A stretch of DNA of 64,000 bases from Bilabrum cf. latius (taxonomy: Eukaryota): positions 558,001 to 622,000 of the forward strand of contig OZ237749.1 in NCBI GenBank assembly GCA_965178125.1, written 5' to 3'. Below are positions 4,728 through 44,398 of this stretch, in pieces. The position numbers were made by a program, and so were the translations under genes. The notes beneath the pieces are model-generated. The model was not told the origin of the DNA. It made no database searches and saw only the letters and a list, made by a program, of their open reading frames with translations. The number at the start of each line of letters is the position of its first letter. Position 1 is the first letter of the stretch.

Positions 4728-4740
4728 CCCCCCCCCAGGG

Positions 4741-7700
4741 TCACCCACCCTCAGGATCAATGCTTGCATCTTGAAAGATCAGCTGACCAATTCGACTAGC
4801 AATCGCGTCCCATGAGTACGTCTCGATGCACTGCTGCCGCATGGCGAATCGCTTGGCCTCGAAGCGCGCGGGGTGCTACAGCGCATCTCTGGCAGCGCGC
4901 ACCACGGCATGCCAATATGCTTTCGAGAGATGCAACTCTAGCTGACGATTACTGCTTTGGTTGGACATCGCTTCACGCACCTCGCTGTTGCCGAGCACAG
5001 CGTCTGCTTGCCTGGCTGCGAGCAGCTCATTCATCTGGAGGCGAGCAAGCCCGACGTCTGCTGTGGGCCCCAGAGATCCAGCGGACCAGCTCTGATTGCT
5101 TCCTCGCTCATCAGAGTTTCGATTCTGCTGCGCGAACCCATCTTCAATGCTGCGATTGTACGGCTGTTCGGCGGCAGTAGTCCCCCTTGGGATCCAGCCC
5201 TTGCGAGCAAGCACCTGCTCGGCGCGAAGCCCCGCGTCGAACTGACCCACAATCTCGGGTAGTGCCGTCAGCGGCCATCCGATTGTTATGGGCACAGCGC
5301 CTGCACACATGGCTTTGACAGCTACTGTGCAAGACGTCTCTGGAAACGTGCTAGGGTACAGCCAGAAGGAGGCCCGTGACAGCCTGTCCTGCAGCTCAGA
5401 AGCCGGTACCATGCCGCGGTAGTCCACTCCTGGCAGCTAGAACAGCTCTGTGATCTAGCGCTTCCACTCCCAGTAGGTACTTGAGACGGCCGATACGAAA
5501 GAATCAATCGATTTTGTGAAGCCGTAGTATACCTCAAGCCGCGCTTCCCCGCCCAAATCCTTGTAAATGTACGGCCAAGACTCGAGCACCATCTAAAGGC
5601 CCCGCATGGGGCTAGAGGCATACACAAACGTCAGCATGGGGGGCTTGGCTACGAAAGGTCGGACCAGGTCTCTGGAAATGCCGTTGGTTAGGATGCCCAT
5701 CCAGGGCAGTGGGTACCTCAAGGGAGTCGGCGGCAAGCTTGGGTTTGCAATCTGCTTCGGCATCGAGTGCCACACGTGGAATGCCGAGCCATGGAAGACT
5801 CTACAGGCAAATTTCGAGTGCAGTCCATCCCCCGACCTAGGTTCGCTTGATTCGGTCTCCTGCAGATGCCCATCCACAAGGTCCTGTAGCCAGATCCACA
5901 CGCTTTTCACGTTGGGCAGAGCGGCACCTTGCAACCTGTCGGCGCACTAATGGCTATCCCACGGTGCGATGCACTCAGAATCGATTCTGGTATCCACGTG
6001 CTGCAGTGGTACCAGCGCATCGGCCACCGAATGTGTGTATCTGTATGCGACAAACACTGTGGGGATGTTACACCTTGCTAGCCTCTCCTGCACCCCCTTG
6101 GTTTTAAACCAATACGCACCACTGTGCCAACTGCCGGTATATGAGTCTGGTACTGTGTCCGTGTGCACTTCAATCATGATCTCAGGGGACGCTCTATGCA
6201 GCGCAGCCACCAATTGCACGACGGCCTCCTCTGAACCACCAAGTGACTTGGGGCCGGGCTTGTCCTTCGATTCGGAAGGATCGATAACCCACGGACCCCA
6301 CCCGGGAAAGAATGCGTTGCCGTACTCCTCCGCCTGAATGACTAGTCTGACCTTATGATGAGGCGTGATTCCGCACCCGTCACCCAAAGAAGGGGCACTG
6401 TAGTGCATCGGCAGTCGCAGAGGTGCTTCATGCGCGAGAAAACAGCGGTGGTACGACTGTGCTGAAGCCAGGGCCCAGTAGCTCTCGTCGCCGTACTAGC
6501 CAGGTGGCACGCTGTATCCTGCCCGCCTCAGCCCAGCAAGCCAGCTCACAGAGTTGTACGATGCTATACTAGTGGGAAGCGTGCGCAATAGCCTTTGCAC
6601 GGCCACTGGTATAACAGAACATTCATCTGTGGTGAGCCATGGACGGTGCTTTTCGCTGGCTGTCTGTAGATAGGTAGCAATGCTTGTCCCACCGAGGCTC
6701 CGTGCATCGCTCACTTCTGTGCCACGGTGATCCAATCTAGCACCAGCACCATCAGTGCGCTCAAGAGTATCAGCGATCAGTGTACTGCAGTGGTAGTGGT
6801 GCCTGTGCTTGAGCCATTCGAGCCCCACTCGCAGAAATCCACTGCTTAGTCCAGCACCATCACCACCGCATACACCATCAGCGAACCGGCTGATAGAGTC
6901 TGCTTGCGGAGGTGAAGAAGCTGCTTCGGGACCTGCATCTGGATGCGCCCAAGATTGGCTAGCCCGCTCCGAAGCCCTGCCGATCGCCTGGAGCAGCCAA
7001 GCGGCCGAGTGCCCGTACAGAGCCGGGAGATCCCCCGAGCACTGGCTGCTCCCATTAATCGCGGACACGAGCGTCCGAGCGAGCGAGTCATGCAGCTGCT
7101 ATCGGGTGGCATACGATGCTCGCGCCTTACACCAGGCGCCCCGCAGTTCCCTACCTTTTCTCTCAATCCAATCCTCTAGCAACGAAAGCGAGCCCTGCGC
7201 TTCGGCACATACGTCCATCGCAAGTGCAATGCGCAAAGTGCTGCCGTTTGCGACCGAGAATGATGCGCTACCGGTGGCTTCGAGCAGCTGGCCGAATGAC
7301 TCGAGAGCGGCTTTCATTGATCCGACATGCGAGTCGTACACTTTGCACGACAGAGGGCTCTCTCGACTGGCATGCCACAGAGCTAGATGCAGTCGGTTCA
7401 TCACAGCGCCTGGGGTGTCAGCAGCAAATGACTCGACCTCAGCTTCGACTCGATGGAGCTGCGAGCTTGATCTGCTTGGTACGGTGGGGTTGACTGCATT
7501 CTCCAAGCTGCCCAGTACCTGCAGCAGCTGCGAGGGAGCATCGCCCAAGCCGTGGCCAGTCGATAGCTCAGCCCCAACTTTGGCGTGGTACGGGAGCCAC
7601 CTACCTCGGTACCTCCGGACCTGCGAGGCCCTCACCTCCCAGGCGATCCGCATGGACCTCTGCACAGCCCGAGTGGTGCCCCCGGCATCGAACAGACTCG

Positions 7701-10700
7701 ATGTGAGGCTGGATGCCGCCAGGTGCTGCTTGGCTGTCACCATGCAAGCGTGGCACGATGCCAGCCTGCCAGCCAACTGCTCATAGGCCCGCATGCTGTG
7801 TGGTGCCATTGCACAGTGCATCCTGCGTCGAAGCGCCAAGTCGAGGCCACTACTCGATCTGCCAGTTGCAGCAAGCCCGCATCCGTGGGCATTGAAGCCC
7901 GTCGGTGTGTGTGCCGCGGCACCCAGTGACATGCCTACTCGGGCAGCAAATCCAGGCCCTGGCATCGTCACCGTTGGAACCGCCGCCCACAGCGCCTCGG
8001 CACCGGTGCTGTGCATGTTGTACGTTGTGGAATCCAACATCAGATCTATGGCCGCGATCCGCTCGCGGTGTTCGGCGAGACCCACGTGCCCAGCAACCAC
8101 GAATCGGTGGGGTTGGATGCCCCTTGCTGCAGCGAGATTGATCAGCCGGTCGGTCTTCTCCTTGCTTCCGGAGCCGATCACGATCATGACGCACCTAGGA
8201 CAATGCCGCAAGATACCAGCCCAGGTGTCGAGAAGGAACGGCTGTATGCGACTCACATGGCCCACAAATCCAAGATGAATGCGCTTGCTGCGGATGGACT
8301 TGCTAAACGGACCGGCACCGATCACTTGCATGCTTCGGTCAAGCTGCACCAACCGCCTCCTCCAGCGTCCAGATATTGCAGCGCTTCCTTCCGACCGCAT
8401 CTCAATCAGCCGTAGAAACCCATCGGCAGGAACAGATGGCGACTGTAGCGTGGTTTGGTAGGTGTTCGGCAGGATCAGCATTCCCTCGGACATGCCTGCG
8501 CGAGACACCCTGCCTGTGCCTCGCTCGAAGGCGTGAGGCAAAGAGCCGAGGAGCTCTGCCCGAGGATCCAGCGGGAGCACTCCGCCTCTAGAAGCAGCTG
8601 TCCTACCAAACGATGCGTGATTCTGCCTGCCAGTCAGCTCCACTGGTGGATCAGGAGGTGTGACAAATCGATCCACGATGGCGTAGTCAGCATAGCTGTC
8701 GGCGGCCGAGCCGGGATACCCGAGGTACTGAATCACGATCTTGCCGGCTCGTCGCACGGTGAAGTCGAGGTTCATGTTGCTCGTGTGGCCCATGAAGTCG
8801 AGCACTATATCAGAGTGGCTGCCAGGCTGGATGTCCTGGAGGTCCGCGCGACAGCTAGTTGTGCCGTGCTCAGGTGGGATGGAATGCAACAAGCCATCGC
8901 ATAAAGATCTAGCTGCCCGAGCCATGCCAATTGTGTTGGCAATTATAGCAGTAGATCCGTCCTCAGCATGTACCAACGAACATGGGATCCGATGGATAGA
9001 CCCCCAAAGGGAGTAGTTGTATGCCTTTTGCTCTTCTACCGTGTCCAGCTTGCGTACGGCTTCCTCGCACCTATGAATACGGCTAAATGCCACTACCTCG
9101 CTACCTGCCCGCAGCATACCACCAGTTCTTGCCATTTTACCCTCGGCGAGGTGGGCAGAATCTATGCCAGGGACCAGCTGACGCCAGCCCATGGAGGCCA
9201 TCTGTGCGATGTGAGTTGCTGTCAGGAGCGGGTTCACCTGGAGAGAACCCAGCCATTCCGCCGCTGTCTGTCGATCGCGCGATCGCTCCCACGTTTCATT
9301 GAGCCAAACAGATGCAGCGGTAGCGTACTCTGCACCCTGACTGCACTCTCGCAATGCCGCATTTGCCGCCGCCGATTCGAGCATGGGTGGCCAATGCGAG
9401 GGTCGACCGCCATTGCACATTGCAGCTGGTGGCCTGTCCATAGGCCCATACATCCATGCTTGCAGGGCGATGCTGTTAGTGTCAAAGTGAGGCAACATGC
9501 CAGTGATCATCGACCCCATGGCGTGAGTTCGCATGTCATACGACATCGCATTCACCCGAAGCTTGCGCGCGTTCCCGCCTCTCACGATGCGAACACCTGC
9601 GTGGGTCCTGGAACCCCGCATGGCCTCTGGCACAGGGCCTAGAGCAGGTGGGACCACCTTTCCTTGCTGCACCTGTGCCTCCTAGCCGACCATCCTTGGC
9701 TGAAAGGACAAGCCTTTGACGATAGCAATTCCTAGCCTGAGTTCGGCCGAGGACACCAGGTAGGACACGTCATACACTATCATGCGACCCGAATCTGAGG
9801 CTGTATTTCCAACAATCTGACGTGCATAGACCCCACACGATTGCGCTAGTGCATCCAGGCGACGCTAGCGACTACCAAGGTCTAGTGTCCAACCATCTCC
9901 CGGGCCCTGGAGCAGCGTCGACTGGCACTGCACGACCGCTTCCAGCATGGCCAGCCTCTCGTCTGATATCCCAACGAGAGAGCGGTGCAGCGATGGGTCT
10001 AGGAATGAGTCTCTCTCGGGACCAGACGCAAACCACTGCAGCAGCCTCAGTGCCGACAGCTCCGTGGCTGCTTCTGCCGGTGCGAAACACACAGACATCG
10101 CCTCGGGGCTGCCGGGGGTCTGCACCAGAGACAGATCAGCTGCATTGTCTAGAGCCCCGAGCAATTTATCTCCTTCCAGCATGCTCTTTGCATATGATAC
10201 TGAATCAAATAGCTGCGATCCATGTGCCCCAGTGCTGGTGCTGCTCTGCGCTGCACGGTCCTGCATTGCTCTCACAAAGCACTCGAGCCCCTGCAGCACA
10301 AGCTTGAGCACCTTCCTCAGCCCGCTGAGACAAAGCTCGTATGCCTCCCATCGATATGATTCCTGCAAGACCTTGCACACAGACATGAGCGCCCCATGCA
10401 GTCGGGGCACCCGCGCCATCACTGCCACGGTCGATCGCAGCTGCATCGCTTCGACCTCTCCTCCCGACTTGCCCTTGCTTTGGGCACCCTTGTTGAAGTG
10501 CAGGTCGATGTTGGCAAGATTGAACGTGGCAGCAGAGCGCGCTGAGCTGGTGGTTAGCTCCTCTGGCATGTCCAGCATCAGACTGTACCACACCTTGGCC
10601 ATCTCGAACGAGTGCTGGTTGACGTGGTGGTTGCCCACTTCGATGAGAGCGACGAAATTCGTGCTGGGCGAGCCTGCAGACACAGAGGCCAGCTGGGGGG

Positions 10701-11694
10701 CTAGCGACCATCCCGCATGAGCATCCAGTGCCACCTGATCGCCTGCCTGTCTCAAGATATCCACTTGATCAGCTGTGAGCCCGCTTACCGCAAGTTGCAG
10801 GTAGCACTCTGCCACGAGTGGCTCGACTCCAAGACCACGGATTTGCTCGCAGACTAAATGCGAATCACTGCCTTCCCAGCCTTTGATTTCTTCCAATGCG
10901 CGCTTGCTGGCCACCCAGGCTGACGGCGCCCAGCTGGGCACTTGCTCGGACTGGCCCTGCACCCATGCTCGGTGCAAGTGTGAGGCCGCCGCCCAGGCAG
11001 CGGCACGGCGAGCGTAGAGATAGTTGCCAGCTGCGATCGCAAGGTCCCTCCCACATCTTGCAGACCTACGCATAGCCTTGAAAATGTGCTGATTGGTATA
11101 GGCAAATGAGATATGCCGATCATCATGACATTCTATTTCAAGAACAGCCTAGAGATCCAGTAGTCTGGCGCCAAAGCAAACGATCTACTTGTATTTTAGC
11201 GATTGCGTCCTGATCTTGGCCCTTGGTATCCAATCGAAGGCAGCGCGGTGGCCAAGATGATACCGACCCCATGCGACGACAGGGCACTTGACAACATCCT
11301 TGGTCGTTACGCTTGCTTCAAAGCCAACTATGAAAGAAATCAGCTCGACTACTTGAGATCTACGTCCTTGGACAATCGCGGGGTATTGCCCCTGCAAGCA
11401 TGACTGCATTTGTTCGATACTTGGAAGCCGAGCAAACGTCTCGGGGATCAAGCTGCAAAGCGTGTACATTTCTGGCATTTCTACTAGTGCGCCCAACACA
11501 AAAAGTGCATTTGTGCACGGATTTTGGTTCTCGCCGTTCACCACAATGTCCTGGAGCCTTCCAGCAGCCATAGCATTTTGCACTCGTGATTCGTCCAACA
11601 TGTCAACATTCAGCTCTGTCCCCGATATACCCCCCCAAAGCGACTCTTTTGCAGTACAATGCGTGATGATAAATAAATGTAGTATCAAGTGCAT
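4741..11694 (-). CDS. Signal peptide + degenerate TPR-like region + GT41 (OGT/SPINDLY-like) + GT4-like bifunctional glycosyltransferase, copy 1 (~2317 aa, 11 in-frame TAG)
   Basis: Seven track ORFs (11185-11814 down to 4876-5427) join in frame across TAGs and end at TGA 4741-4743. GT41 motifs: SYDMRTHAMG, DFMGHT, QYLGYPGS, DLMLDSTTYNMHSTGAEALWAAVP, FAARVGMSL. GT4-like motifs: LGGSEEAV, YASSPMRGL, LYPSTFPETSC, YSWDAIA. The start was chosen at MHLILHLFIITHCTA by comparison with the other copies. Confidence 0.85.
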
Positions 11695-12369
11695 AAATGG
11701 CCGCATGCGCACCAAGCACAGGTGGTTGAGCCAGCCGGTGAAGGAGGGTACGGTCGTCATGGTAGATATAAAAACCAGAATCCTTGTTGCCTCTACTAGT
11801 AGTACACGCAACATGACAGAGCCGCTCTCGAGCAGAGTCTCGGCTGCAAAGTGAGATTATGGTCTTTACAAACCTTAGTAGTATCTGTATTGGAAGAAGC
11901 TAAACTGATTAAAGTCTATTTGCGCCGGAATCGCAGTCTATTCGTGTCGATCGAAGCCTGGCGAGCCTGCTGCCTCAGGTACCTTTCATGGAACATCAGA
12001 TGTAATCTTGCAAACAGTTGCAATTGATCTAGTCCGTCTGGGTTTTATCCTATACTGGACGAGAAGAGATACGGGTCGGAGTAGATTCAGTGTTGGATGC
12101 CTTACAGGGAAGTGTGATGGGGCTTATTTATGGTACGGTTCAGAGGTTTCGGTCACTAGAATTGCTCACATAGCGTGACATATCGATTTCTATGTAGGAC
12201 TACCCACAGCTGTAGGTGTAGGGCGCGAATTTGTTTTGAGCGAATTTGTCTTGAGCAGACGAAATCAGTGTGTCGCTAAATCAATCGTCATAATCACCTT
12301 CGAGACCTTGCCTTGGACCCTCGCCCAAAAGTAGTTCTCTGTGGCACTTATCGAGACTTCCGAGCTCAC

Positions 12370-14800: not shown

Positions 14801-14853
14801 TACCAATTGCAGCGCACGTTTGGGACCTTCTAGACCACCACTCCTGTACAGGG

Positions 14854-17800
14854 TCACCCACTCTCAGGATCAATGCTTGCATCTTGAAAGATCAGCTGAC
14901 CAATTCGACTAGCGATTGCGTCCCATGAGTACGTCTCGATGCACTGCTGCCGCATGGCGAATCGCTTGGCCTCGAAGCGCGCGGGGTGCTACAGCGCATC
15001 TCTGGCAGCGCGCACCACGGCATGCCAATATGCTTCCGAGAGCTGCAACTCTAGCTGACGATACCTGCTTTGGTTGGACATCGCTTCACGCACCTCGCTG
15101 TTGCCGAGCACAGCGTCTGCTTGCCTGGCTGCGAGCAGCTCATTCATCTGGAGACGAGCAAGCCCGACGTCTGCTGTGGGCCCCAGAGATCCAGCGGACC
15201 AGCTCTGATTGCTTCCTCGCTCATCAGAGTTTCGATTCTGCTGCGCGAACCCATCTTCAATGCTGCGATTGTACGGCTGTTCGGCGGCAGTAGTCCCCCC
15301 GGGGATCCAGCCCTTACGAGCAAGCACCTGCTCGGCGCGAAGCCCCGCGTCGAACTGACCCACAATCTCGGGTAGTGCCGTCAGCGGCCATCCAATTGTT
15401 ATGGGCACAGCACCTGCACACATGGCTTTGACAGCTACTGTGCAAGATGTCTCTGGAAACGTGCTAGGGTACAGCCAGAAGGAGGCCCGTGACAGCCTAT
15501 CCTGCAGCTCAGAAGCCGGTACCATGCCGCGGTAGTCCACTCCTGGGAGCTAGAACAGCTCTGTGATCTAGCGCTTCCACTCCCAGTAGGTACTTGAGAC
15601 GGCCGATCCGAAAGAATCAATCGATTTTGTGAAGCCGTAGTATACCTCAAGCCGTACGTCCCCGCCCAAATCCTTGTAAATGTACGGCCAAGTCTCGAGC
15701 ACCATCTAAAGGCCCCGAATGGGGCTGGAGGCATACACAAACGTCAGCATGGGGGGCTTGGCTACGAAAGGTCGGACCAGGTCTCTGGAAATGCCGTTGG
15801 TTAGGATGCCCATCCAGGGCAGTGGGTACCTCAGGGGAGTTGGCGGCAAGCTTGGGTTTGCAATCTGCTTCGGCATCGAGTGCCACACGTGAAATGCCGA
15901 GCCATGGAAGACTCTGCAGGCAAATTTCGAGTGCAGTCCATCCCCCGACCTAGGTTCGCTTGATTCGGTCTCCTGCAGATGCCCATCCACAAGGTCCTGT
16001 AGCCAGATCCACACGCTTTTCACGTTGGGCAGAGCGGCACCTTGCAACCTGTCAGCGCACTAATGTCTATCCTACGGTGCGATGCACTCAGAATTGATTC
16101 TAGTATCCACGTGCTGCAGTGGTACCAGCGCATCGGCCACCGAATGCGTGTATCTGTATGCGACGAACACTGTGGGGATGTTACACCTTGCTAGCCTCTC
16201 CTGCACGCCCTTGGTTTTAAACCAATACGCACCACTGTGCCAAGTGCCGGTATACGAGTCTGGTACTGTGTCCGTGTGCACTTCAATCATGATCTCAGGG
16301 GACACTCTATGCAGCGCAGCAACCAATTGCACGACGGCCTCCTCTGAACCTCCAAGTGACTTGGGGCCGGGCTTGTCCTTCGATTCGGAAGGATCGATAA
16401 CCCACGGACCCCACCCGGGAAAGAATGCGTTGCCGTACTCCTCCGCCTGAATGACAAGTCTGACCTTATGATGGGGCGTGATTCCGCACCCGTCACCCAA
16501 AGAAGGGGCACTGTAGTGCATCGGCAGTCGCAGAGGTGCTTCATGCGCGTGAAAACAGCGGTGGTACGACTGTGCTGAAGCCAGGGCCCAGTAGCTCTCG
16601 TCGCCGTACTAGCCAGGTGGCACGCTGTATCCTGCCCGCCTCAGCCCAGCAAGCCACCTCACAGAGTTGTACGATGCTATACTAGTGGGAAGCGTGCGCA
16701 ATAGCCTTTGCACGGCCACTGGTATAACCGAACATTCATCTGTGGTGAGCCATGGACGGTGCTTTTCGCTGGCTGTCTGTAGATAGGTAGCAATGCTTGT
16801 CCCACCGAGGCTCCGTGCATCGCCCACTTCTGTGCCACGGTGATCCAATAATCTAGCACCAGCACCATCCGTGCGCTCAAGAGTATCAGATACCAATTTA
16901 CTGCAGTGGTAGTGGTGCCTGTGCTTGAGCCATTCGAGCCCCACTTGCAGAAATCCACTGCTTAGTCCAGCACCATCACCGTCGCATACACCATCAGCGA
17001 ACCGGCTGATAGAGTCTGCTTGCGAGGATGAAGAAGCTGATTCGGGACCTGCATTTGGCCGCGCCCAAGATTGGCTAGCCCGCTCCGAAGCCCTGCCGAT
17101 CGCCTGGAGCAGCCAAGCGGCCGAGTGCCCGTACAGAGCCGGGAGATCCCCCGAGCATTGGCTGCTCCCATTAATCGCGGACACGAGTGTCCGAGCCAGC
17201 GAATCATGCAGCTGCTATCGGGTGGCATACGATACTCGCGCCTTGCACCAGGCGCCCCGCAGTTCCCTACCTTGTCTCTCAATCCAATCCTCTAGCAACG
17301 GAAGCGAGCCCTGCGCTTCGGCACATACGTCCATCGCAAGCGCAATGCGCAAAGTGCTGCCGTTTGCGACCGAGAATGATGCGCTACCGGTGGCTTCGAG
17401 CAGCTGGCCGAACGACTCGAGAGCGGCTTTCATGGATCCGACATGCGAGTCGTACACTTTGCACGACAGAGGGCTCTCTCGACTGGCATGCCACAGAGCT
17501 AGATGCAGTCGGTTCATCACAGCGCCTGGGGTGTCAGCAGCAAATGACTCGACCTCAGCTTCGACTCGATGGAGCTGCGAGCTTGATCTGCTTGGTACGG
17601 TGGGGTTGACTGCATTCTCCAAGCTGCCCAGTACCTGCAGCAGCTGCGAGGGAGCATCGCCCAAGCCGTGGCCAGTCGATAGCTCAGCCCCAACTTTGGC
17701 GTGGTACGGGAGCCACCTGCCTCGGTACCTCCGGACCTGCGAGGTCCTCACCTCCCAGGCGATCCGCATGGACCTCTGCACAGCCCGAGTGGTGCCTCCG

Positions 17801-26032: not shown

Positions 26033-26946
26033 GTGAGTCTGTTTGCATCAAACCAGACGTACACGCGAGAGTTTTATCCAGTTCACGACCCACGACAGGA
26101 CCACCTGGCTCTACCCGTTCGCGCAGCCTCTGCCTTGTCTTCCTGTTGCCCTCTACACGGGAGTACTGTGGGCCATTTAGGCATCGTCACAAAGCGCCAG
26201 CGAAGCTGTGACTAGTCAAGAAGCCAGTGATGACAAAAAAGAAAGGTAATAGGGCGCCATGCTTGGTCTGCCAACAACTGGTTGATGATCACAGCTAGAG
26301 CCTGCGGATGCGTGCAAGCGCTCGTAGTCATCCGTGAGAAGCAGTGCCCGGTGCAGCACCAGCCATGGCCAGTCATGATGACTTCATCAAAAGGCACTGA
26401 TGGAAGGTGAATCGCCTTCACCAGCGCACAGCTGCTGGCTGGCGAGGGGCATGCCGTCACCCGCGCAGCCGGCCGCGATGTCTCCCTCGTCGGCAATCCG
26501 AGCTGTCAGCGATGAACTCAAGCCTTACTGAGTACTCGCTGCAAGGCTTCCATGGGGTTTCATGGCGGGCAGTGGAGTCACTTCGTGGTCTGCTCGCGCT
26601 CACAGGATACGGAGTCCAGCTAGATCTAGTCAAGACGGGGCAGTGAATTTTCAAAAAAAAAGCACGGCTTGCCAAGCGGCTGTACAGGCTGGCAATCGAT
26701 TCGAAGAGCCCGCCGCTACAGAATAGTGGCGTGATGTCTGGGCGGTGACAATCCTGCAGATCTGAGCCTGCTTCGCAGCTGTGAGCGAACGGAGCAGTTC
26801 TGAACGCAAGGCGCACATTGGCATTGTACCCAATAGATTGTACCATTCGAATCAGCCAAAGACATGGGAAGCTTTTTCTTCCCAACATATTCCATCGGAG
26901 ATTCCTCCCCGCGCTTGTCCTCCCAATACCTGTTCAAGATGCTCGC

Positions 26947-28250: not shown

Positions 28251-28442
28251 TGCTTCTTGCGCTACCTGTAGCTTGGATTGTGCGAACCGATGCTATCCGA
28301 TTTAACTGTACCAAACAGCACGGTACAAAAAATGCGGTTGCATTTAAATTTTCATTGGCCTGTTTGGGATATTATGAGCGATCTTGGGTTGCTTGGTAGT
28401 GCTGGAAAATTAGAATAGTTGTTACAATCACTGTAGAGCCGA

Positions 28443-29813
28443 ATGGACGAATAGAGTGCCCGAATAGCGTACCTGGAGGGTGAGCTACGCAGGCGTCCAA
28501 CTGAAAGTGAGCTTGCAGATGCCGTAAATACTATGGATGGCAAGATTCAGGAATGTCATCGGGCAATCAATGGAGTGATTCGTGATATTCAATATGCTTC
28601 GACGGATTCGCACCAACCTGAATCTGGCAGCGGTGGCACTCCTCCGATCGGCGAGGTAGTTTCCCGATTGCTAGAGCGAGCAACACGCGCTGAACTTGGA
28701 ATAGCCAAAGCAGCCACATGTGTGCAGCTAGATGACATGGCTTCCAGGCTTCGCGATAGGGCTGATAGTGCTGTTCGAGAGTTGCAAGCCACCAAGGCGT
28801 CCGCTGCAACGGCACGGAGTCTTGAAGCCGCGCTGGAAGACTTGGGAGAGCGGCAGTCGCATCTTGAATCGGCGGTCGCTCGAAAAGTAGATAGTTCAAG
28901 GCTGCGTCAAATCGAGGCTGCCGCTGCCGTCGTGAGGGAGGAGGTTGACGCCAGGCGCGCCCTGAGGGCGGACGTGGACGGTCTCGGGGAGCAGTGCTAG
29001 GCACTCGCTCGAGCAGCCGAGGCAGAGGTGAGCAGCGGGGAGAAATTCGCCCAGCTGCTCGGTGACCTTCGCGGCGAGCTAGCTCGAAAAGCAGGGAGCG
29101 ACGATCTGCGACGAACGGCCGAGCAGTTGCGCGGCACCGTGAGCGCACTGGAGTCCGCCACGTCGGATCGCAGCATGGCCGTGGAGGCCAGGGTGGGCGA
29201 CTTGGAGCAGAGGCAGTCCGCATCTGAGTCTGCCGCCGAGGAGCACCGCCTTGCGACCGATCATGCCAGGGAACAAGGGGACCAGGCCTTGGCGGAAGCC
29301 GAGGAGCGGCTGGCAGGGGAGACCGCGAGGGTGGAGCGCGAGGTGCGGCGGGCGCTGGGTCTGCTCGCCCGAGAGATGGAGGGCAGGGCGACGGGGGGCT
29401 CGCTGGACGCGTGCAGCGACAGAGTGGAGGCACTGGAGCGGGCGACCACCACTCTCCAGGAACAAGTAGGGGTGGCCCTGGACTTTGTGGACTGGTTCAG
29501 CTCTCGTGGTGAGGCATTCGAGCATAACGCGGCTTCCATCGAGCGCCACATGAACGCGATCGCGGGAGGGAACGTGGCTGCCACGAGGGCTTCCTCGAGG
29601 GCTACTTTGCATGTGACGAGTGGGAGTGGGCGGGGACGTGGAGGTCCTCTGTCCCCGGCAGGCTCCATGATGCCGGGCGGTGGTTCCCCGGCAGCGCGTG
29701 GCAGCAGGGCGGTGGGAATGGACGTCGGCAAGGGCATGGGAGGTAGGCCGCCAAAGGGAGGCGCTGGAGATGCTCGCACCAGAACGGGTGGCACTTCGGG
29801 GACGGGTGTGTAA
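28443..29813 (+). CDS. Coiled-coil protein (start uncertain; 2 in-frame TAG; TAA stop)
   Basis: ORFs 28533-29000 and 29028-29813 are in frame across TAG 28998 and extend upstream across TAG 28452. The sequence is rich in A/E/R/L heptads. Confidence 0.7.
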
Positions 29814-29972
29814 TACAGTGCGTATTTTCCCTCAAAATATCGGTGTTGTATCACGTAGTTAAGCTTAAGCACCCGCAGAGACGAGAGACAACTGCAGACG
29901 GCAAAGCTGTGGTTTTGCGTCTCCTCCTCTTCAGACCAATGTTTGAAACAAATTCGCTTGGGGCTGGGGACA

Positions 29973-32900
29973 ATGAAAACACTTTTCCTCATTCTCGTTT
30001 TTATAATTAAGGTGACATATAGTCACAAGTCACTTTGGGTGGGGTTGCACGGGAAAGAACTTAACTTGGATGCGTTGGACGAATCTAGAGCGGAAGCTGC
30101 ATTGAACGCCGTCCGTCAACAAGGCAGGGTCATAGGCAGAGAGGTCCAGAGCCGATGCACGAATTTACTTCTTGTGTTCAGTGCTTTGGCGGAGTTGCCA
30201 GAAATGTACACACTTTACAGCCTAGTCTCTTAGACAGCATCTCACTTTGTCAACCTTCACGAGGTCCAATCATGCTTAGTTGGAGAGTACCCTGACTATT
30301 TGCGATACGAAAAACCGAATATATTTGCTCTTGTATCTCTTATGGTTGGCTATGAAGCTGAGAAGCTGTCTGAACAGTCCAAACCAAGTGGACAACATGT
30401 AGCAGAATTAGGACGGTGCCCATGGGTATCATGGGGTTTGCACAAATTTGGCCAAAAGGCTGCATTCGATTGGTGGCCACAAGCTAGCACGGCGCTGATG
30501 AGCTCATCAGAAGTTGATATTGTCACCTGCTACGGCGCTCAAAGTCTAGGCCTCTAGCAGCCTCCGAGTCTCATCAAAGCAAATCTGCAGTGCGGCAACG
30601 AGTCAAGGTTGTCCGTAAGTGATCACTCTGCGGCGCCCATGGAAGCATTCTACAAGGCTATGCGTAGGTCTGCAAGATGTGGGAGGGACCTTGCGATCGC
30701 AGCTGGCAACTATCTCCACGCTCGCCGTGCCGCTGCCTGGGCGGCGGCCTCACACTTGCACCGAGCATGGGTGCAGGGCCAGTCCGAGCAAGTGCCCAGC
30801 TGGGCGCCGTCAGCTTGGGTGGCCAGCAAGCGCGCATTGGAAGAAATCAAAGGCTGGGAAGGCGGTGATTCTCAGTTAGTCTGCGAGCAAATCCGTGGTC
30901 TTGGAGTCGAGCCACTCGTGGCGGAGTGCTACCTGCAACTTGCGGTAAGCGGGCTCACAGCTGATCAAGTGGATATCTTGAGACAGGCAGGCGATCAGGT
31001 GGCACTGGATGCTCATGCGGGATGGTCGCTAGCCCCCCAGCTGGCCTCTGTGTCTGCAGGCTCGCCCAGCACGAATTTCGTCGCTCTCATCGAAGTGGGC
31101 AACCACCACGTCAACCTGCACTCGTTCGAGCTGGCCAAGGTGTGGTATAGTCTGATGCTGGACATGCCAGAGGAGCTAACCACCAGCTCAGCGCGCGCTG
31201 CTGCCACGTTCAATCTTGCCAACATCGACCTGCACTTCAACAAGGATGCCCAAAGCAAGGGCAAGTCGGGAGGAGAGGTCGAAGCGATGCAGCTGCGATC
31301 GACCGTGGCAGTGATGGCGCGGGTGCCCCGACTGCCTGGGGCGCTCATGTCTGTGTGCAAGGCCTTGCAGGAATCATATCGATGGGAGGCATACGAGCTT
31401 TGTCTCAGCGGGCTGAGGAAGGTGCTCAAGCTTGTGCTGCAGGGGCTCGAGTGCTTTGTGAGAGCAATGCAGGACCGTGCAGCGCAGAGCAGCACCGGGG
31501 CACATGGATCGCAGCTATTTGATTCAGTATCATATGCAAAGAGCATGCTGGAAGGAGGTAAATTGCTCGGGGTTCTAGACAATGCAGCTGATCTGTCTCT
31601 GGTGCAGACCCCCGGCAGCCCCGAGGCGATGTCTGTGTGTTTCGCACCGGCAGAAGCAGCCACGGAGCTGTCGGCACTGAGGCTGCTGCAGTGGTTTGCG
31701 TCTGGTCCCGAGAGAGACTCATTCCTAGACCCATCGCTGCACCGCTCTCTCATTGGGATATCGGACGAGAGGCTGGCCATGCTGGAAGCAGTCGTGCAGT
31801 GCCAGTCGACGCTGCTGCAGGGCCCGGGAGATGGTTGGACACTAGACCTTGGTAGTCGCTAGCGTCGCCTGGAAGCACTAGCGTGGTAGTGCAGAATAGC
31901 TCCTGGAGGAATAAGGAAATCTGTTTCTATTCATTTGGGCCACATAATTGTGTACGACCTGTCATTTCTGGTAGCCTCAGCCGAACTCCGACTCGCTACC
32001 GCGGTTGTGAATGGTCAGTCCTTTCAGCCGCGGCAAGTTGGCAAGGCGGCACAGGCACAGCAAGGAAAGGTGATCCCGCCTGCTCTAGGCCCTGTATTAG
32101 AGGCCATGCGGGGTTCCAGGACCCGCGCGGGTGTTCGCATCGTGAGAGGCGGGAACGCGCGCAAGCTTCGGGTGAATGCGATGTCGTATGACATGCGAAC
32201 TCACGCCATGGGGTCGATGATCACTGGCATGTTGCCTCACTTTGACACTAACAGCATCGCGCTGCAAGCATGGATGTATGGGCCTATGGACAGGCCACCA
32301 GCTGCAATGTGCAATGGCGGTCGACCCTCGCATTGGCCACCCATGCTCGAATCGGCGGCGGCAAATGCGGCATTGCGAGAGTGTAGTCAGGGCGCAGAGT
32401 ACGCTACCGCTGCATCTGTTTGGCTCAATGAAACGTGGGAGCGATCGCGCGATCGACAGACAGCGGCGGAATGGCTAGGTTCTCTCCAGGTGAACCCGCT
32501 CCTGACAGCAACTCACATCGCACAGATGGCCACCGCGGGGTGGCGTCACGTCGTGCATGGTCTGGACTCCGCCAAACTAGTAGAAAGTAAAATGGCAAGA
32601 ACTGGTGGAATGCTGCGAGCAGGTAGCGAGGTATTGACATTTAGCCGTATTCATAGGTGCGAAGAAGCAGAACGATCGTCAGCTAGTGCTGCGGGCCAGC
32701 ACAATCGGCACAAACTAAACCGCTACATCTCGCCTGGATCAGTTGCTGGAATAGCATGTGCGCTATTGCAGTATAGAGAAGGAGCTGTTGCCATAATTGC
32801 CGATCCAATAGATATGGCTTGGGCAGCTAGATCTTTATGCGATGGCTTGTTGCATTCCATCCCACCTGAGCACGGCACAACTAGCTGTCGCGCGGACCTC

Positions 32901-34970
32901 CAGGACATCTAGCCTGGCAGCTACTCTGATATAGTGCTCGACTTCATGGGCCACACGAGCAACATGAACCTCGACTTCACCGTGCGACGAGCCGGCAAGA
33001 TCGTGATTCAGTACCTCGGGTATCCCGGCTCCGCCGCCGACAGCTATGCTGACTACGCCATCGTGGATCGATTTGTCACACCTCCTGATCCACCAGTGGA
33101 GCTGACTGGCAGCCGGAATCACGCATAGTTTGGTAGGACAGCTGCTTCTAGAGGTGGAGTGCTCCCGCTGGATCCCCGGGCAGAGCTCCTCGGCTCTTTG
33201 CCTCACGCCTTCGAGCGAGGCACAGGCAGGGTTTCTCGCGCAGGCATGTCTGAGGGAATGCTGGTCCTGCCGAACACCTACCAAACTACGCTACAGTCGC
33301 CATCTGTTCCTGCCGATGGGTTTCTACGGCTGATTGAGATGCGGTCGGAAGGAAGCGCTGCAATATCTGGACGCTGGAGGAGGCGGTTGGTGCAGCTTGA
33401 CCGAAGCATGCAAATGATCGGTGCCGGTCCACGGGGCGTGTCGGTTCGCAGCAAGCGCATTCATCTTGGGTACGTAGGCCACGTACGTCGCATACAGCCG
33501 TACCTTCTCGACACCTGGGCTGGTATCTTGCGGCACTGTCCTAGGTGCGTCATGATCGTGATCGGCTCCGGAAGCAAGGAGAAGACCGACCGGCTGATCA
33601 ATCTCGCTGCAGCCAGAGGCATCCAACCCCACCGGTTCGTGGTTGCTGGGCACGTGGGTCTCGCCGAACACCGTGAGCGGATCGCGGCCATAGATCTGAT
33701 GTTGGATTCCACAACGTACAACATGCACAGCACCGGTGCCGAGGCGCTGTGGGCGGCGGTTCCAACGGTGACGATGCCAGGGCCTGGATTTGCTGCCCGA
33801 GTAGGCATGTCACTGGGTGCCGCGGCGCACACACCGACGGGCTTCAATGCCCACGGATGCGGGCTTGCTGCAACTGACAGATCGAGCAGTGGCCTCGACT
33901 TGGCGCTTCGACGCAGGATGCACTGTGCAATGGCACCACACAGCATGCGGGCCTATGAGCAGTTGGCTGGCAGGCTGGCATCGTGCCACGCTTGCATGGT
34001 GACAGCCAAGCAGCATCTGGCGGCATCCAGCCTTACATCGAGCCTGTTCGATGCCGGGGGCACCACTCGGGCTGTGCAGAGGTCCATGCGGATCGCCTGG
34101 GAGGTGAGGGCCTCGCAGGTCCGGAGGTACCGAGGTAGGTGGCTCCCGTACCATGCCAAAGTTGGGGCTGAGCTATCGACTGGCCACGGCTTGGGTGATG
34201 CTCCCTCGCAGCTGCTGCAGGTACTGGGCAGCTTGGAGAATGCAGTCAACCCCACCGTGCCAAGCAGATCAAGCTCGCAGCTCCATCGAATCGAAGCTGA
34301 GGTCGAGTCATTTGCTGCTGACACCCCAGGCGCTGTGATGAACCGACTGCATCTAGCTCTGTGGCATGCCAGTCGAGAGAGCCCTCTGTCGTGCAAAGTG
34401 TACGACTCGCATGTCGGATCTATGAAAGCCGCTCTCGAGTCGTTCGGCCAGCTGCTCGAAGCCACCGGTAGCGCATCATTCTCGGTCGCAAACGGCAGCA
34501 GTTTGCGCATTGCGCTTGCGATGGACGTATGTGCCGAAGCGCAGGGCTCGCTTCCGTTGCTAGAGGATTGGATTGAGAGAAAAGGAAGGGAACTGCGAGG
34601 CGTCTGGTGCAAGGCGCGAGCATCGTATGCCACCCGATAGCAGCTGCATGACTCGCTCGCTCGGACACTCGTGTCCGCGATTAATGGGAGCAGCCAATGC
34701 TCGGGGGATCTTCCGGCTCTGTACGGGCACTCGGCCGCTTGGCTGCTCCAGGCGATCGGCAGGGCTTCGGAGCGGGCTAGCCAATCGTGGGCGCATCCAG
34801 ATGCAGGTCCCGAAGCAGCTTCTTCACCTTCGCAAGCAGACTCTATCAGCCGGTTCGCTGATGGTGTATGCGGCGGTGATGGTGCTGGGCTGCGCAGTGG
34901 ATTTCTGCGAGTGGGGCTCGAATGGCTCAAGCACAGGCACCACTACCACTGCAGCGCAATGAGCTAGTGA
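29973..34970 (+). CDS. Signal peptide + GT41 glycosyltransferase, copy 3 (inverted, lacks the GT4-like domain; 8 in-frame TAG)
   Basis: Starts MKTLFLILVFIIKVTYS. The frame is continuous across TAG 30231, 30555, 31860, 31887, 32910, 33126, 34638 and 34965 to TGA 34968-34970. Similarity to copies 1 and 2 stops after HHYHCS (~34955). Confidence 0.8.
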
Positions 34971-35205
34971 CTGATAGGCTACGTAGAAACCTAGATCAAG
35001 GGCATTCACGGCCGAGCTGGACTGCAGGGGTTGACTGCTGGCTGCCTCCGAGATCCAGCCCGGTCGGTCCGCTGGTGCTGGCTACGTTAATACATTTTGG
35101 GCGATCCACAACGCATGGAACGAGTTTGTACTGGCGTGTCGTCGGGCCCCTAGCTTCGTTTCATGTTGCGTGCGGAACCGGAGTGCAGTGCAGCTGTGTT
35201 GGGCC

Positions 35206-37734
35206 ATGTTGCATGCACATGCACCCCGGGCCGTGGGCCGTGGCTTGAATCCGGAGCGTTTCATCATTCACCTCCATGAAGCCATCAAGCGTAATGATAT
35301 GGGTGTCAAATATTATCTTGTCATGCATCATGGGGCTATCGTTTGCGGTTCTTGTCCCCGAGGCCGGCAACCAAGTGCAACTCTACTGCATTAGGCTAGC
35401 CATGATTATCACAGGGTGCAGCCAATTATGATTTGTAGCGACTTGACAAGTATGGCATTGATCAACGATGTGGTTCAAAGATCTGATGCTGTGCAGAGCT
35501 GTGCTTGGAGGCTCGGAAATACCGTCCCAACTAGAGGAGACGCATTGCTACAGACTGCCGGTCGGAGGTACTTGTTCTATGACCTATTCGCCAGAGATGG
35601 ACAGATTTTTGGAATATTGCCAAGCTATCGGCGGAGCCCTTTCCTACTTGACGGAATCAGAGTGGAGGCTCGAGCGGAGCAGTATCTGCAAGAGACCGGC
35701 TGGGTGCAGCTTGGTTCGTTTGTATCAATTCGTACAGTTCCATAGGACGCACACTAGACCTTGTCAGCGAAGGTATTGCGCTGGAAGCTTCCTGTAGCAA
35801 TGAGGGCACAGCTCCCGACTGGTGGATTCATCCACGTTCGAGTTTCGGTGGCGGGCCAAGCATGGCTGCTGCGGCTGTGGCACGCAGAGATTCTTTAGGG
35901 CCAGCTCGCGAGTAATCCTGCAAAACTATTCTAGCACCATGATGAATGCGTCAGATATCCGGGCTGGGACTGCTTGTGGCCCCGCTCTCGAGGCGCTCCA
36001 GCCAACCAGACCGATAGCCGCACCCCTGGCACTCAGACTGGCGCCGGCGGGCACGATCGATCCCCCCGACTAGCAGGAGGAAAGAGGCCTCCAATTACGC
36101 ATGCTACAGCGCAGAAAGCGACGGACCCGCGCCCCCACCGCGTGGTTGCAACCACCATGATGCTACTCGAGGACAGGGAGAGGTACCTCGCCACATGGGC
36201 TGCATACCACGCAGCAAGGGGGCTGGAGGCGCTCGTGTTATACAGGAATGACGACGAGTGGGTGTAGGGTATGTGCCTGGCCAAAGAAGCCCTGCGATTC
36301 TTCTGCGCCGGCGTACAGCACTCCTTGGACTGGGAGATATCGGGGAACGGATCCAGCGAGGCGTTGCCGCCTGTATGCAAAGGGCAGCAACCACCCTCGG
36401 AGCTGTGTCTGCCCACCGCCCGCCACGCGATTCCATCTAATCCAGTTGTGCTGGAGCTATCCTGGCCCTTTCGAATGTACAACCCACAGTCGTCAGACAC
36501 GCTGCCGTATGCTGGGGAGGCGCAGCCGCACGCTGAGCAGCACTTTCTTCTCAAGTACGGCAAGCCTCTCGCGGAGTGGATGCTGCATCTAGACGTGGAC
36601 GAGTATCTCAATGTGACTTCGTTGCATGATTTAGCTGCATTGGCAGACTCTCGTGTCGTTGCGACTGGATCAGTACCGCCCGGATCAATCGAGTTCCACA
36701 GCCGCTACGCTTTGGCGGCCTTGCGACCAGCAGTGCAGAGCAACTTCTCGATCTGCCCCCCTGAGCAGTTGCTCCTGAATCCGAGCATGCCGATCGCAAG
36801 AGTTCAACAAGACGAATGGTCGGCGGTGGTATCCGTAGCTCTAAGGAATGCAGGCTTCTCGGACGGCTTGGCGTAGGCCAACGGGCCTATCCGATCAACG
36901 GCAACCAAGGAGCGAGTGGTTCAGCAAGTGCCAATCGCAGAAGCTAGGCAACGCCTTTAGCTTTACGGTTAGCCCTGGGATTGGCCAATACTAGTCGAAC
37001 CTTCGCTGAGCCATCGGGTGCCTCCCGCCGAGCCTACTAATGATGAAATCAAGTACCTGGACCACGGGTGGCGCACCCGAAAGTACATGGCGCGCACGGA
37101 CCTGGTGGAGTGGGCGAACATTCACAACGCCGACTTGTTTGGAATGACGAGCTACGCCCCTGCATTGCGGCAATGGCACGTTGCGGCTGGAGCAAAGTGC
37201 TGCGCGTGGGTGGGTGGCACCAGCGAGATGCCTGTGGCGCCATCAGTCGGTGCAGGGGCCGACGGATCGGATCAAATCGATAGGTGTTCCCCATGCGACA
37301 GCGCGCTTCCCACTGTAGGTGCCCTGCAGCTGACTGAGGGTGGCGTGCTGCTCCATTTCCTGGAGCAGAGTACCATGGTGAAGTTCGCTCTGAACAAGCT
37401 GCGGGCGTTCCTGCCACCGACTGAGAGGGCGGTGGAGCACGATGGATCGCAGCCGCTGGGCACCATCGTCGCACAGCCTGGCGAACACGTAGCCATGGCA
37501 GGCGATCAGCTTGAGGGTAATCAATTTGAGGGTAGTCGGCGTGTGGACCTGCCAGTTGACCTAGCCTCTTCGTTTCGTGATAAACCTAGTGCTGTCTGTG
37601 AGCACCGTGTGAAGCAGGCTCTGTTCTTGCGCGGGGTGCATCTCGGATGGGGCGCAGGCAGCGAGACGAGCAAAATACCGATGTAGCAGCAGGTGTGGCC
37701 GGACAGTGAGAAGAAGCAACTTGAATCTGCATGA
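35206..37734 (+). CDS. GT92/GT2-like (GT-A fold) glycosyltransferase, paralog A; start uncertain; 10 in-frame TAG
   Basis: Six track ORFs lie in one frame, open from 35035 to TGA 37732-37734 except for TAG. Motifs ERYLATWAAYHAARGLEALVLYRND and WMLHLDVDEYL (DxD). Colinear with paralog B. Confidence 0.7.
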
Positions 37735-38679: not shown

Positions 38680-41653
38680 GAGGGTTTACACTAGTGAACA
38701 ATGAGGCCGTACAGCCAGTTACTCTGCAGTGAAATCATGTGGCAGTCTTACGCATCCGGTGGACAGAGCGGCACTACGACGCGGACAGCAAGAAGGCTAG
38801 ACAAGACGCGCGTTATGCAGTCATTATAGAGAACGTGGTGCTCGGAAGTCCCCAGAAAGCCGTAGTTGCCCGCTGTGAGCGGGACAGGCCCATGCCACCA
38901 GCACCGCAAGGGAGGCAGAAAGGTACGGCGCACACGGCGAAGGCTGTCGATGTTCTGAATCTTTGCGCATCTCCTGCATTGAGTATACATCATACTGCAG
39001 TAGTTATCAATATCTGGCACAAGCTAGCCCTCGTTGTGCACTTCCAACACAATCAATTGTCTGTGTCGTCATCAGCCTCTGCCCAGTGGACAAGCTCGGC
39101 ATGTCCTGGGCGCGAAAGCGGCGGCAGGTACCAGTACTTCCCAGAGGCAAGCTGCTCCGCAATGCTTCCGTTGCAATACCCTCGAAGGAACATGGCCTGC
39201 CTCACTGCTCGCTCGCAGCTGGAACTTCCACCGCTAGACCGATCGGGCAGTGGTCCAAGCCCATCGGCTTGCTCTAGGGTACTTTCGCAGTCCGACACCG
39301 TCACCTCGGAGAGAGGCAGAAGTGACGCTGTTAAAGACTGGAACAGCTTCGACTCAAAGGATTGCTCCATTATGTGCAGCATGCAGGCGCCCGGGATGAC
39401 AGTATCGGCGTTGACTACCTGAGGTTCCGGCGCTCGTTGCAGGTACAAGGCCACTTGGTCGATCCTTTCGTCAGGCAGCTTGCCTGGGGCGTTGAGCAGC
39501 TCAAGTACAGTGATGCGGTCGTTACTTTCACCAATCGGGATGGAGCGGCTCGCGAAACGCAGCCATTGCCGCGCTGCTGGCGATGGATGGGTTGAGAGCT
39601 GCACCTTGTGTATCATCACGGTCTGCACGAGATCAGTCCTGGCCATCCATTTGCTCCGAAATGTCCTCTGCACATCTGACATCGCAGAGAAATCTGGCTG
39701 TGACGCTGCATACACTGGCCAGTACTGGTCAGGGAGATCTGATTTTCGCCACCACGCTTTGTCGCGGGCCTCCTTGACCAGCAGCATTGACCTAGACCGG
39801 TCACGCATCCCACTGACAGCTGCCCAGTCGCCTAAGCGGGCGGCGTCAACGGACGGGATGTGCTGCCTTGGCATGCTTGCAAGCGCAAGCGGTCTATTGG
39901 CTTCTTCGTATTCAACGTGCAGCATGTCCTAGTAGAGGGGAGCACCGGAGTTGAGCTACAGCTCGAGAGGGGGGCACCTGGAAAAGCCGCTGTCGACTGC
40001 AGGCTTCACGGACGCTACGGCAAAACGATTCATAAAACTAATAGCCCCGGGCGGTACCTGCGAGCGGTTGCTGGCGGACGCATCTGCCTCCCGAATCAAT
40101 CGATCGAAGGAAGTCACGTTGATGTACTCGTCCACATCCATGTTGATCATCCACTCGGCCAAGGGCTTGCCGTACTTGAATAGGAAGTGCGCCATCGCAT
40201 GGGGCTGTGATTCTTGTCGGTACGACCAATAGCTATCAAGGTGATTGTTGTACTTCCTGAATGGCCAGGAGAGCTCCAGCACTGTGGGGTTGCGCCGAGT
40301 AGAGACCTGCACGTGCTGCAAGCACTGCGCCTGCAGGTTGGGATGCAATCGAAATGGCGCAGCGCAAAGCTATACGCTGCTGCCCGGCATAAAATCAGCA
40401 ATCGGATCCAGTGGCGCTTGGCGCGACTCATCAAGCTGGATGCCTTCGCAGTAGAACTTTGCGGCTTCCGCCAAGAGACACGCGGCTTGCAGCCACTCGT
40501 CGTCATTTCTGTACACCACCGCTGCCTCCACGCCTCGGTCAGCATGAAAGGCCGCCCACGATGCCATATATCGCTCCTTGTCCTCTAGCAGCATCATGGT
40601 TGTAGCCATGAGCTTGTAAGGGCGGGGGTCTCTGAAATCTCCGGTACCTGCCGCAGGCTACGGCTGGTCGTCCGATGAGTCATTGACAAATGCTTGTCGC
40701 GCTGTCACTCGAGGCCAAATGCAATTCCAACCAGGGTACAACACGCAGTCAATTCCACCATTTCGGAGCACGGAGTCTTCGAACTATATCACTCTGCCAA
40801 CCTCAGGCTATTGTGATTCGACTTCAGCTTGAAGTGATCGCAGTTGGCTCCCGAGCAGGTCGGCATGCCAAACCCTTCGGGCAAATGCCTTTTCACCGTA
40901 CCGAATTGCAACTTCAATGAACTAGTTTAAATGAATCTCACGTGGAAGTACCCACCTTACTGTCTCCCATGCGTTATTTGGAAACTGTTCATGCGGTAGT
41001 GCAGGTGATGCGGTTTTGTGTAGCAGCTCATGCCATGGGGCTCCCGGTATTGAGGCTCGCACCACAGGCTTTAGTTCTTCCATTCGAATTCCGATTCTGG
41101 CATACTGTGGCACAATCGCGAATAGTTGCCTGTCTCTCGCGAATACATCGTGGACAAGCCATCGTATGCCAACGTTTGGCGGATGCGGCGTGGAAATGTT
41201 TCCGCCCGTGCTCCTCTCTGCGCCTCCAAGATGCCATGCGCACCTGCCAAGAGGGATCTCATCTGGCAATTCAACTCTCTCTTGCTTCAAAGCACCGCCA
41301 AGGTTGTCGTAACAGAGCTCTATCGGCTGCACCCGATGGTAAGGGTGACTGCCCTCATGCAAGATGCGCGATGACGGCAGCCCGTGCCAGTCCCGTGGCT
41401 AGCGGACTATACCGCAGGATCCCAGTGCAAACAGCCAGAAGAGGGCTGTCAGATTTCTGGCAAAGCAGCACATGTAGAGTTGCAAGCACCGATTTCTGGC
41501 AAAGCCACACTCTACTACAGGGCGGTATCCCTTGTGACGCTGAGAGAGCAGAGAAAACTGGATCCTAGATTGTATTTCTGATGTCGAAGAACTACACTCT
41601 TTCTCGTTCGCGCTGGGAAAAAGTCAGCTGTCGAGCACACGTTGTCGTGCTCC
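38680..41653. repeat. ~2.97 kb direct duplication, copy 1
   Basis: Matches 44399-47372 at offset 5719, with only about a dozen substitutions seen. Confidence 0.95.
39053..41473 (-). CDS. GT92/GT2-like glycosyltransferase, paralog B1 (~806 aa, 8 in-frame TAG)
   Basis: Hydrophobic leader MCCFARNLTALFWLFALGSCG. ORFs 40922-41362, 40370-40609, 39956-40348 and 39053-39925 join across TAG. Motifs ERYMASWAAFHADRG and WMINMDVDEYI. Confidence 0.75.
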
Positions 41654-44388: not shown

Positions 44389-44398
44389 AACAGGAAGG

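Follow-up and report, generated by a model that had tools for sequence, protein, structure and literature searches.

UAG as a sense codon in a GC-rich locus of Bilabrum cf. latius, with glutamine as the favoured reading

Which amino acid is inserted at UAG when this triplet no longer ends a protein? The question is raised by a 64-kb stretch of contig OZ237749.1 of Bilabrum cf. latius (the window, within which all positions are given), which under the standard code splits into many open reading frames of 150-570 residues; once TAG alone is treated as a sense codon, the frames reach 800 to 3527 residues. Among the genes are three copies of a glycosyltransferase (GT copies 1 to 3) and a second glycosyltransferase family (G2a, G2b and G2c), whose in-frame TAG codons were compared with one another and with outside homologues (Table 1). 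We find that UAG, and only UAG of the three stops, is a sense codon in the genes of the window and that it stands for a polar residue; with modest confidence, we identify that residue as glutamine.

UAG is read as sense while UGA and UAA terminate

The 13 long frames of the window hold 90 TAG codons, 0 TAA and 0 TGA among 16,809 in-frame codons, against 280 TAG, 106 TAA and 710 TGA in the same DNA's other two sense frames. Genes end in TGA in 14 of 16 cases and in TAA in 2 of 16. Admitting TAA as a further sense codon (table 6) lengthens no large gene and only fuses the coiled-coil gene with GT copy 3. Database proteins from relatives are pieces of 96-314 residues from genes of more than 800 residues, as expected if standard-code gene callers have cut genes that share the same recoding.

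Contigs of two public RNA-like runs (X2 and X7) on positions 21900-41600 jump over 82-290 bases with GT..AG ends (CT..AC on the opposite strand), and the genes are therefore transcribed and carry short spliceosomal introns; four joints are given in Table 1, and further, less clean joints occur in the same comparison. On the X2 contigs that contain a splice joint all six covered TAG codons are unchanged (five in the Kelch-repeat gene and one in the methyltransferase-like gene), so TAG is neither spliced out nor edited. The X2 contigs cover 23 TAG codons in all and match the window with 0 differences. The ratio of nonsynonymous to synonymous substitution rates (dN/dS) is 0.20-0.27 between the three GT copies, which shows that they are not decaying pseudogenes. 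Both features of a UAG-only code are found here: UAG in frame within expressed, constrained genes, and termination at UAA and UGA.

The residue inserted at UAG

An initial annotation, made from the letters of the window, had proposed glutamine with glutamate as the runner-up, citing codon pairs between paralogues and motifs that call for a polar residue. All seven codon coordinates checked hold the codons it named. CAG at 8827-8829 (minus strand, GT copy 1) lies opposite TAG at 18943-18945 (minus, copy 2) and 32910-32912 (plus, copy 3), and the TAG of NDDEWV*GMC at 36265-36267 (plus; asterisks mark TAG) pairs with CAA at 40487-40489 (minus, G2b). Codon alignments reproduce Glu opposite the TAGs at 30231 and 35392 (both plus) and K, S, G, W, Y and L as partners of others; the motifs RGL*MVLESWP, ELF*LPGV, HAWQ*PY, GE*DNDEAEEE and MK*EEQAPEPEQ are all in frame.

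To these alignments 13 outside relatives were added. The C-terminal GT module yielded one relative of 583 residues (P0001, 39% identical) and four bacterial GT4 proteins, and a search for short fragments with GT copy 1 gave at least one close piece (P0006, 125 residues, 86% identical). With the G2a/G2b alignment, a word search of proteins returned no homologues and an exhaustive profile search returned 18 proteins; eight of these, P0010-P0017, are fragments of 96-314 residues that are 31-71% identical to G2b. The sole distant homologues of the G2 family, P0018-P0027, are GT92-like proteins of 326-372 residues rich in Asn, Lys and Ile, and their look-alike clusters in the Atlas are mostly from Nucleocytoviricota and diatoms. 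Scans of metagenome, genome and viral contigs gave none of the relatives' DNA.

The residues opposite TAG were scored in two ways. Under BLOSUM62 conditional probabilities at 16 hand-classed sites, Gln is best in all three weightings, with Glu 1.9 to 4.0 nats below it, Arg 2.4 to 6.6, Lys 4.1 to 9.2, Ser 6.0 to 14.5, and Leu, Tyr and Trp at 14.6 nats or worse (Leu 15.3 to 36.6). An objective tally filtered automatically by local identity, gave each site a single vote, left out the duplicate GT copy and took its substitution tables from the same alignments; in its set of 13 sites Gln and Arg lead and Glu and Lys follow within about 2 nats, while Leu appears in the strictest set only, where it is at least 7.5 nats under the best residue. 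The residue is thus polar, as the initial annotation had argued from motif contexts and from the poor fit of Leu and Tyr, and readings of UAG as Leu, Tyr or Trp are rejected.

Among the polar residues glutamine is favoured because of the Q at 36265 and 37684, two fragment ends, a CAG/TAG polymorphism, the BLOSUM scores and the prior, Gln being the commonest outcome of nuclear UAR and UAG reassignment (PMC11687900, PMC5304391). P0006 ends exactly before the window CAG at 5035-5037 (minus) and, lying on a 3741-base contig, is truly bounded by a stop; the end of P0015 precedes a second window CAG, at whose column three of four homologues have Q. Six fragment ends fall inside window proteins, two of them before Gln (P0006 and P0015) and 0 before Glu; the chance of two or more is 0.022. 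At the polymorphic CAG 8827-8829 (minus) C is read in runs X10 and X11, which come from relatives about 90% identical, so that CAG probably preceded TAG at this codon. Of the 1675 differences of X10 and X11, the 40 listed add only two TAG changes that were already known.

The paralogues inside the window are less informative than the initial annotation had supposed: taken alone, the internal pairs express no preference, with Gln only 0.5-0.8 nats over Glu. GT copies 1 and 2 have 13 aligned positions with TAG in either, 9 of them common to both and 4 different, where TAG stands opposite TAT, AAG, CAG and TGG. GT copy 3 adds two TAG/TCG pairs, one of which (31887) lies in a badly aligned stretch with a local identity of 0.5. 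All TAG partners among the GT copies are one-base neighbours of TAG, as expected. Between G2a and G2b four well-aligned TAG positions are opposite E, G, Q and L. Sequence context is equally uninformative: a naive-Bayes test of the flanking residues is powerless, placing Gln first in only 22% of trials with true Gln sets, and the flanking hydropathy of TAG sites places every residue but Cys within 1.9 standard deviations.

Several results weigh against glutamine. Glu is 0.7-3.0 nats ahead of Gln in the stricter objective sets (8 and 6 sites), and across the objective tally Gln, Glu, Lys and Arg all fall within about 3 nats. With the duplicate GT copy counted, Gln stands opposite TAG at 5/30, 4/19 and 4/14 positions and Glu at 6/30, 5/19 and 5/14. 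An acidic residue is favoured at 5593, 40922 and 35392. The other four of the six fragment ends precede M, M, A and a TAG/Leu column, and of the six only that of P0006 is certified as a stop, as the others may be ends of contigs. A one-step mutation model was built from the window codon counts with a transition bias of 3 and dN/dS of 0.25; CAG accounts for two of seven recent one-step changes (one of them in an outside fragment) where 69% would be expected if UAG meant Gln, and the model puts Gln below Ser, Lys and Tyr and below a neutral model. The 64-kb window contains no tRNA gene detected by ARAGORN and no Rfam family, and no eRF1 gene was found among the window frames scanned or searched. 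The claim that Gln fits best therefore stands for BLOSUM scoring with outside homologues (1.9-4.0 nats) and is not robust to the objective filter, where Glu is equal or ahead; the reservation about Glu in the initial annotation was well placed.

In a code of this kind with Glu, a tRNA(CUA) derived from tRNA-Glu(CUC) would read UAG while UAA and UGA remain stops, a reading that we regard as possible but unlikely. It draws on three columns, with E, D, E, D, Q at 5593, E in the nearest homologue at 40922 and E at 35392, on the TAG at 30231, opposite E in GT copies 1 and 2 in a poorly aligned stretch, and on its lead in the stricter objective sets; Glu or Asp stands opposite TAG at 4 of 13 sites, Leu at 1 of 13 (39956). 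Several TAGs also lie in acidic runs, such as GE*DNDEAEEE and MK*EEQAPEPEQ, and excerpts of the literature supply precedents, with UAR or UAG read as Glu in peritrichs, Blastocrithidia and a ciliate (PMC11687900, PMC12153298, PMC10553269). Set against these are the invariant Gln in three homologues at 36265 and the Gln at 37684, the absence of GAG or Glu from the seven recent one-step changes and the six fragment ends (0/7 and 0/6), and the deficit of 1.9-4.0 nats under BLOSUM. Glu is also the rarer outcome among known nuclear codes, and the literature searched yielded no GC-rich non-ciliate in which UAG means Glu while UAA and UGA both terminate, the one UAG = Glu case listed there having UAA as Lys.

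It is doubtful that UAG specifies some other single residue, either one whose tRNA is one anticodon change away (Lys, Ser, Tyr) or Arg. Arg lies opposite TAG at three sites and Lys at two, both trailing the best residue by 0-2.2 nats in some of the objective sets; TCG is paired with TAG twice and AAG once among the GT copies; and on the seven recent events Ser, Lys and Tyr beat Gln by 1.8-3.7 nats. BLOSUM scoring reverses this order, with Ser 6.0-14.5, Lys 4.1-9.2 and Tyr at least 14.6 nats lower than Gln, one of the two TCG events is that in the badly aligned stretch at 31887, the codons of Arg are two steps from TAG, and the literature searched holds no nuclear reassignment of UAG to Ser, Arg or Lys.

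The possibility that UAG has no single faithful meaning, termination being lost or weak and near-cognate tRNAs inserting a mixture that is tolerated where the residue matters little, is more improbable still. It would account for the low conservation opposite TAG, where Q or E is found in 17-36% of cases against an identity to homologues of 46-63% at true Gln and Glu positions in the same alignments (46-61% at Gln sites). It would also suit the fast turnover of TAG (4 of 13 positions differ from GT copy 1 to copy 2, as opposed to 173 of 2232 for codons overall; P 0.015) and its avoidance in conserved genes and in genes with a high GC content at third codon positions (GC3). TAG density falls with GC3 (rho -0.63, p 0.012, 15 genes), and the SDR gene, the uS5 gene and the last 2789 consecutive codons of the TIG gene have 0 TAG. 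Any rare, recently acquired codon with a single meaning is expected to show this pattern, however; 90 TAG in 13 genes, at up to 11 in one protein, would make the products very heterogeneous; and TAG occurs at the invariant Gln column 36265. The low conservation indicates, rather, that TAG occupies weakly constrained positions. Last, that the TAGs are untranslated, as pseudogene lesions or through removal by splicing or RNA editing, is barely credible, as nothing favours it beyond the expectation of the standard code, while TAG is the sole interrupter of the long frames, the GT copies are constrained, the spliced contigs keep their TAGs with 0 differences and none of the TAGs tallied is lost through the four GT..AG/CT..AC joints that X2 and X7 share or show at high depth.

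Genes of the locus

Table 1. Genes, splice joints and diagnostic TAG sites of the window; asterisks in motifs mark TAG.
Feature	Position	Strand	Particulars
Orphan frame	40..3885	+	1281 codons; 10 in-frame TAG; stop TGA
GT copy 1	4741..11814	-	2357 codons; GT41-like and GT4-like domains; 11 in-frame TAG; stop TGA
TRP-like frame	14216-14857	-	214 codons; 2 TAG; membrane fragment (PF06011, E 7.8e-5)
GT copy 2	14854..21816	-	protein 95% identical; 11 in-frame TAG; stop TGA
Kelch-repeat gene	21921..25577	-	7 in-frame TAG; stop TGA; 5' end spliced (joint 25564/25682)
Small membrane-protein gene	25889..26249	+	one intron (26033-26126); 1 TAG (26178); stop TAA at 26247
Methyltransferase-like secreted protein gene	26947..28250	-	intron 27788-28077; 1 TAG (27748-27750); stop TGA
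Coiled-coil protein gene	28374..29813	+	4 TAG; stop TAA (29811)
GT copy 3	29943..34970	+	truncated, inverted; 8 in-frame TAG; stop TGA
G2a	35170..37734	+	GT92/GT2_4-like; 10 in-frame TAG; stop TGA
G2b	39053..41485	-	38% identical to G2a; 8 in-frame TAG
G2c	44772-47204		810-residue protein, at least 99.5% identical to G2b
TIG/cadherin membrane protein gene	47972..58555	-	3527 codons; GC3 0.84; 3 TAG; stop TGA
Orphan frame	58745..59872	-	375 codons; 6 in-frame TAG; stop TGA
SDR gene	60388-61441	-	two exons; conserved; no TAG
uS5 gene, organellar type	62253-62912	-	conserved; no TAG
Splice joints	25564/25682, 26032/26127, 27787/28078, 38128/38211		from run contigs (X2, X7)
TAG RGL*MVLESWP, GT4-like domain	5593..5595	-	E, D, E, D, Q in five homologues
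TAG TLLH*ASHDYH	35392..35394	+	Glu (GAG 41354-41356) in G2b
TAG	35896		opposite G, G, K in homologues
TAG NDDEWV*GMC	36265..36267	+	Q in 3/3 homologues (G2b, P0010, P0011); best single Gln site
TAG KIPM*QQVWP	37684..37686	+	Q in the sole covering homologue (P0016)
TAG CPPLEL*LNS	39956..39958	-	L in G2a and P0017; P0011 ends directly before the column
TAG IHLN*FIEVA	40922..40924	-	E in closest homologue P0010, G in three others
Four further GT TAG sites			opposite T, A, R/K/E/R and R

The GC content of the 64-kb window is 55-66%, and is given as 57% overall. Its proteins look eukaryotic, comprising Kelch repeats, TIG/cadherin domains, GTs, an SDR, an organellar-type uS5 and orphans. An origin of the window in a giant virus is unlikely, as the spliced genes, the heterogeneity of GC3 and the absence from the viral contigs scanned speak against it.

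The 7-kb GT gene is present three times. The repeats at 4736-11814 and 14849-21816 are direct, 10.1 kb apart and 95-99% identical, and the third, at 29943-34970, is truncated and inverted, with arms that are 90-98% identical. GT copy 3 has a diverged N-terminus with its own signal-peptide start, and an early end in TAG followed by TGA. The TRP-like frame between GT copies 1 and 2 resembles the C-terminal membrane part of the TIG protein and may be a gene fragment. A second duplication concerns a segment of about 2.9 kb with G2b (38670-41568), which recurs 5.7 kb downstream (44389-47287); G2b and G2c differ at about four residues and have all 8 of 8 TAG codons in common.

The small membrane-protein and methyltransferase-like genes form a convergent spliced pair with by far the highest contig word depth in both RNA-like runs, the former having the top value of the stretch (454.1 in X2). 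Against the PDB the methyltransferase-like frame gave one weak match (E 0.049), and its TAG lies outside that match. A long 'coiled-coil' open reading frame from 27783 overlaps the intron and first exon of the methyltransferase-like gene, so the coiled-coil gene probably starts at 28374. The Kelch-repeat protein contains long acidic and low-complexity runs. The 1281-codon orphan, which contains 18 consecutive Ser residues and, close to its C-terminus, a stretch rich in Cys and His, had no Pfam or PDB match and could be a mobile-element protein; the 375-codon orphan had no PDB match, and the PDB matches of uS5 pointed to no particular taxon. In the TIG/cadherin gene GC3 contrasts with the value of about 0.61 in most neighbours, and TAG, CAA and GAA are almost absent; codon bias is thus strong and gene-specific inside one locus.

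A candidate mechanism and its place among known codes

We propose that the window is nuclear DNA from a eukaryote that is rich in GC (57%) and has short GT-AG introns. UAG has moved from stop to sense in it, while UGA (mainly) and UAA (as a minor stop) still terminate. Since UAA is kept as a stop, the decoder would have to be a tRNA whose anticodon is CUA, reading UAG and not UAA; with glutamine as the residue, this tRNA(CUA) may derive from tRNA-Gln(CUG) by a single anticodon change and would be accompanied by an eRF1 with weakened recognition of UAG. UAG behaves here as a rare and unpreferred codon: it occupies positions under weak constraint, and conserved or high-GC3 genes avoid it.

The code of Iotanema, with UAG as Gln and with UAA and UGA as stops, corresponds to NCBI table 15. 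In the available parts of the description of Iotanema spirale (Fornicata; Panek et al. 2017, PMC5304391) the likeness is close, as UAG alone changes meaning there, UAA still terminates and the residue is likely to be Gln, and the argument of those authors likewise invokes a tRNA-Gln(CUA) unable to read UAA together with an altered eRF1. The cases differ in their stops, UAA being the primary one in Iotanema whereas TGA ends 14 of 16 genes and TAA 2 of 16 here, and in their evidence, a transcriptome and 60 conserved orthologues there as against about 13 weakly conserved columns here. The predominance of UGA in the window fits a GC-rich genome.

The same source counts as UAG-only nuclear codes those of Iotanema spirale (Gln) and of the rhizarian exLh (Leu), and the latter resembles the present code in reassigning UAG alone and in keeping UAA and UGA as stops, UAA being dominant there (PMC5304391). 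In phyllopharyngean ciliates, excerpts of McGowan et al. (2024, PMC11687900) describe reassignment of UAG alone, to Gln twice and to Leu once. Hartmannula sinica and Trochilia petrani (UAG as Gln) and a TARA clade (UAG as Leu) are like the window in their widespread sense UAG and stop UAA, and differ in preferring UAA as the stop, where the window has 57% GC, introns, DNA with many genes and UGA as its main stop (PMC11687900). A Leu code of the exLh or TARA type was considered for the window and rejected, with Leu at least 15 nats below Gln under BLOSUM and a single Leu column (39956).

Table 6, in which UAA and UAG both mean Gln, is used by many ciliates, hexamitin diplomonads, dasycladalean algae and Amoeboaphelidium (as listed in excerpts of PMC5304391), and it has in common with the window a stop-to-Gln reassignment and UGA as terminator. 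It too was rejected, because 0 TAA against 90 TAG are found in 16,809 codons even though CAA makes up 128 of 505 CAR codons, and because TAA ends two genes. One oligohymenophorean ciliate reads UAA as Lys and UAG as Glu (McGowan et al. 2023, PMC10553269, in part); as in the window, UAG and UAA there differ in meaning, and Glu is a possible residue here as well, but UAA is sense in that ciliate and a stop in the window. Amoebophrya sp. ex Karlodinium veneficum was weighed as the origin of the window and rejected, because its genome is described as AT-rich and as reading all three stops (PMC12005148). A GC-rich eukaryote with a UAG-only code was not found in the literature searched, the coverage of which is incomplete, and one may already have been described.

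Reassignment of UAG alone is thus known as a type, and the present case differs from the published ones in its GC-rich genome and in UGA as the main stop. Within the window the change of code is firmly established; the identity of the residue is less so, with glutamine somewhat favoured by the balance of the evidence. The choice has practical consequences, since a wrong decision between Gln and Glu would give a wrong residue at about 0.5% of positions, and standard-code gene callers cut such genes, as seen in the database fragments of 96-314 residues from relatives. Nuclear codes that split UAG from UAA are rare and demonstrate that the meanings of these codons can separate; another lineage, GC-rich, bearing introns and terminating mainly at UGA, would widen the conditions under which such a separation occurs.

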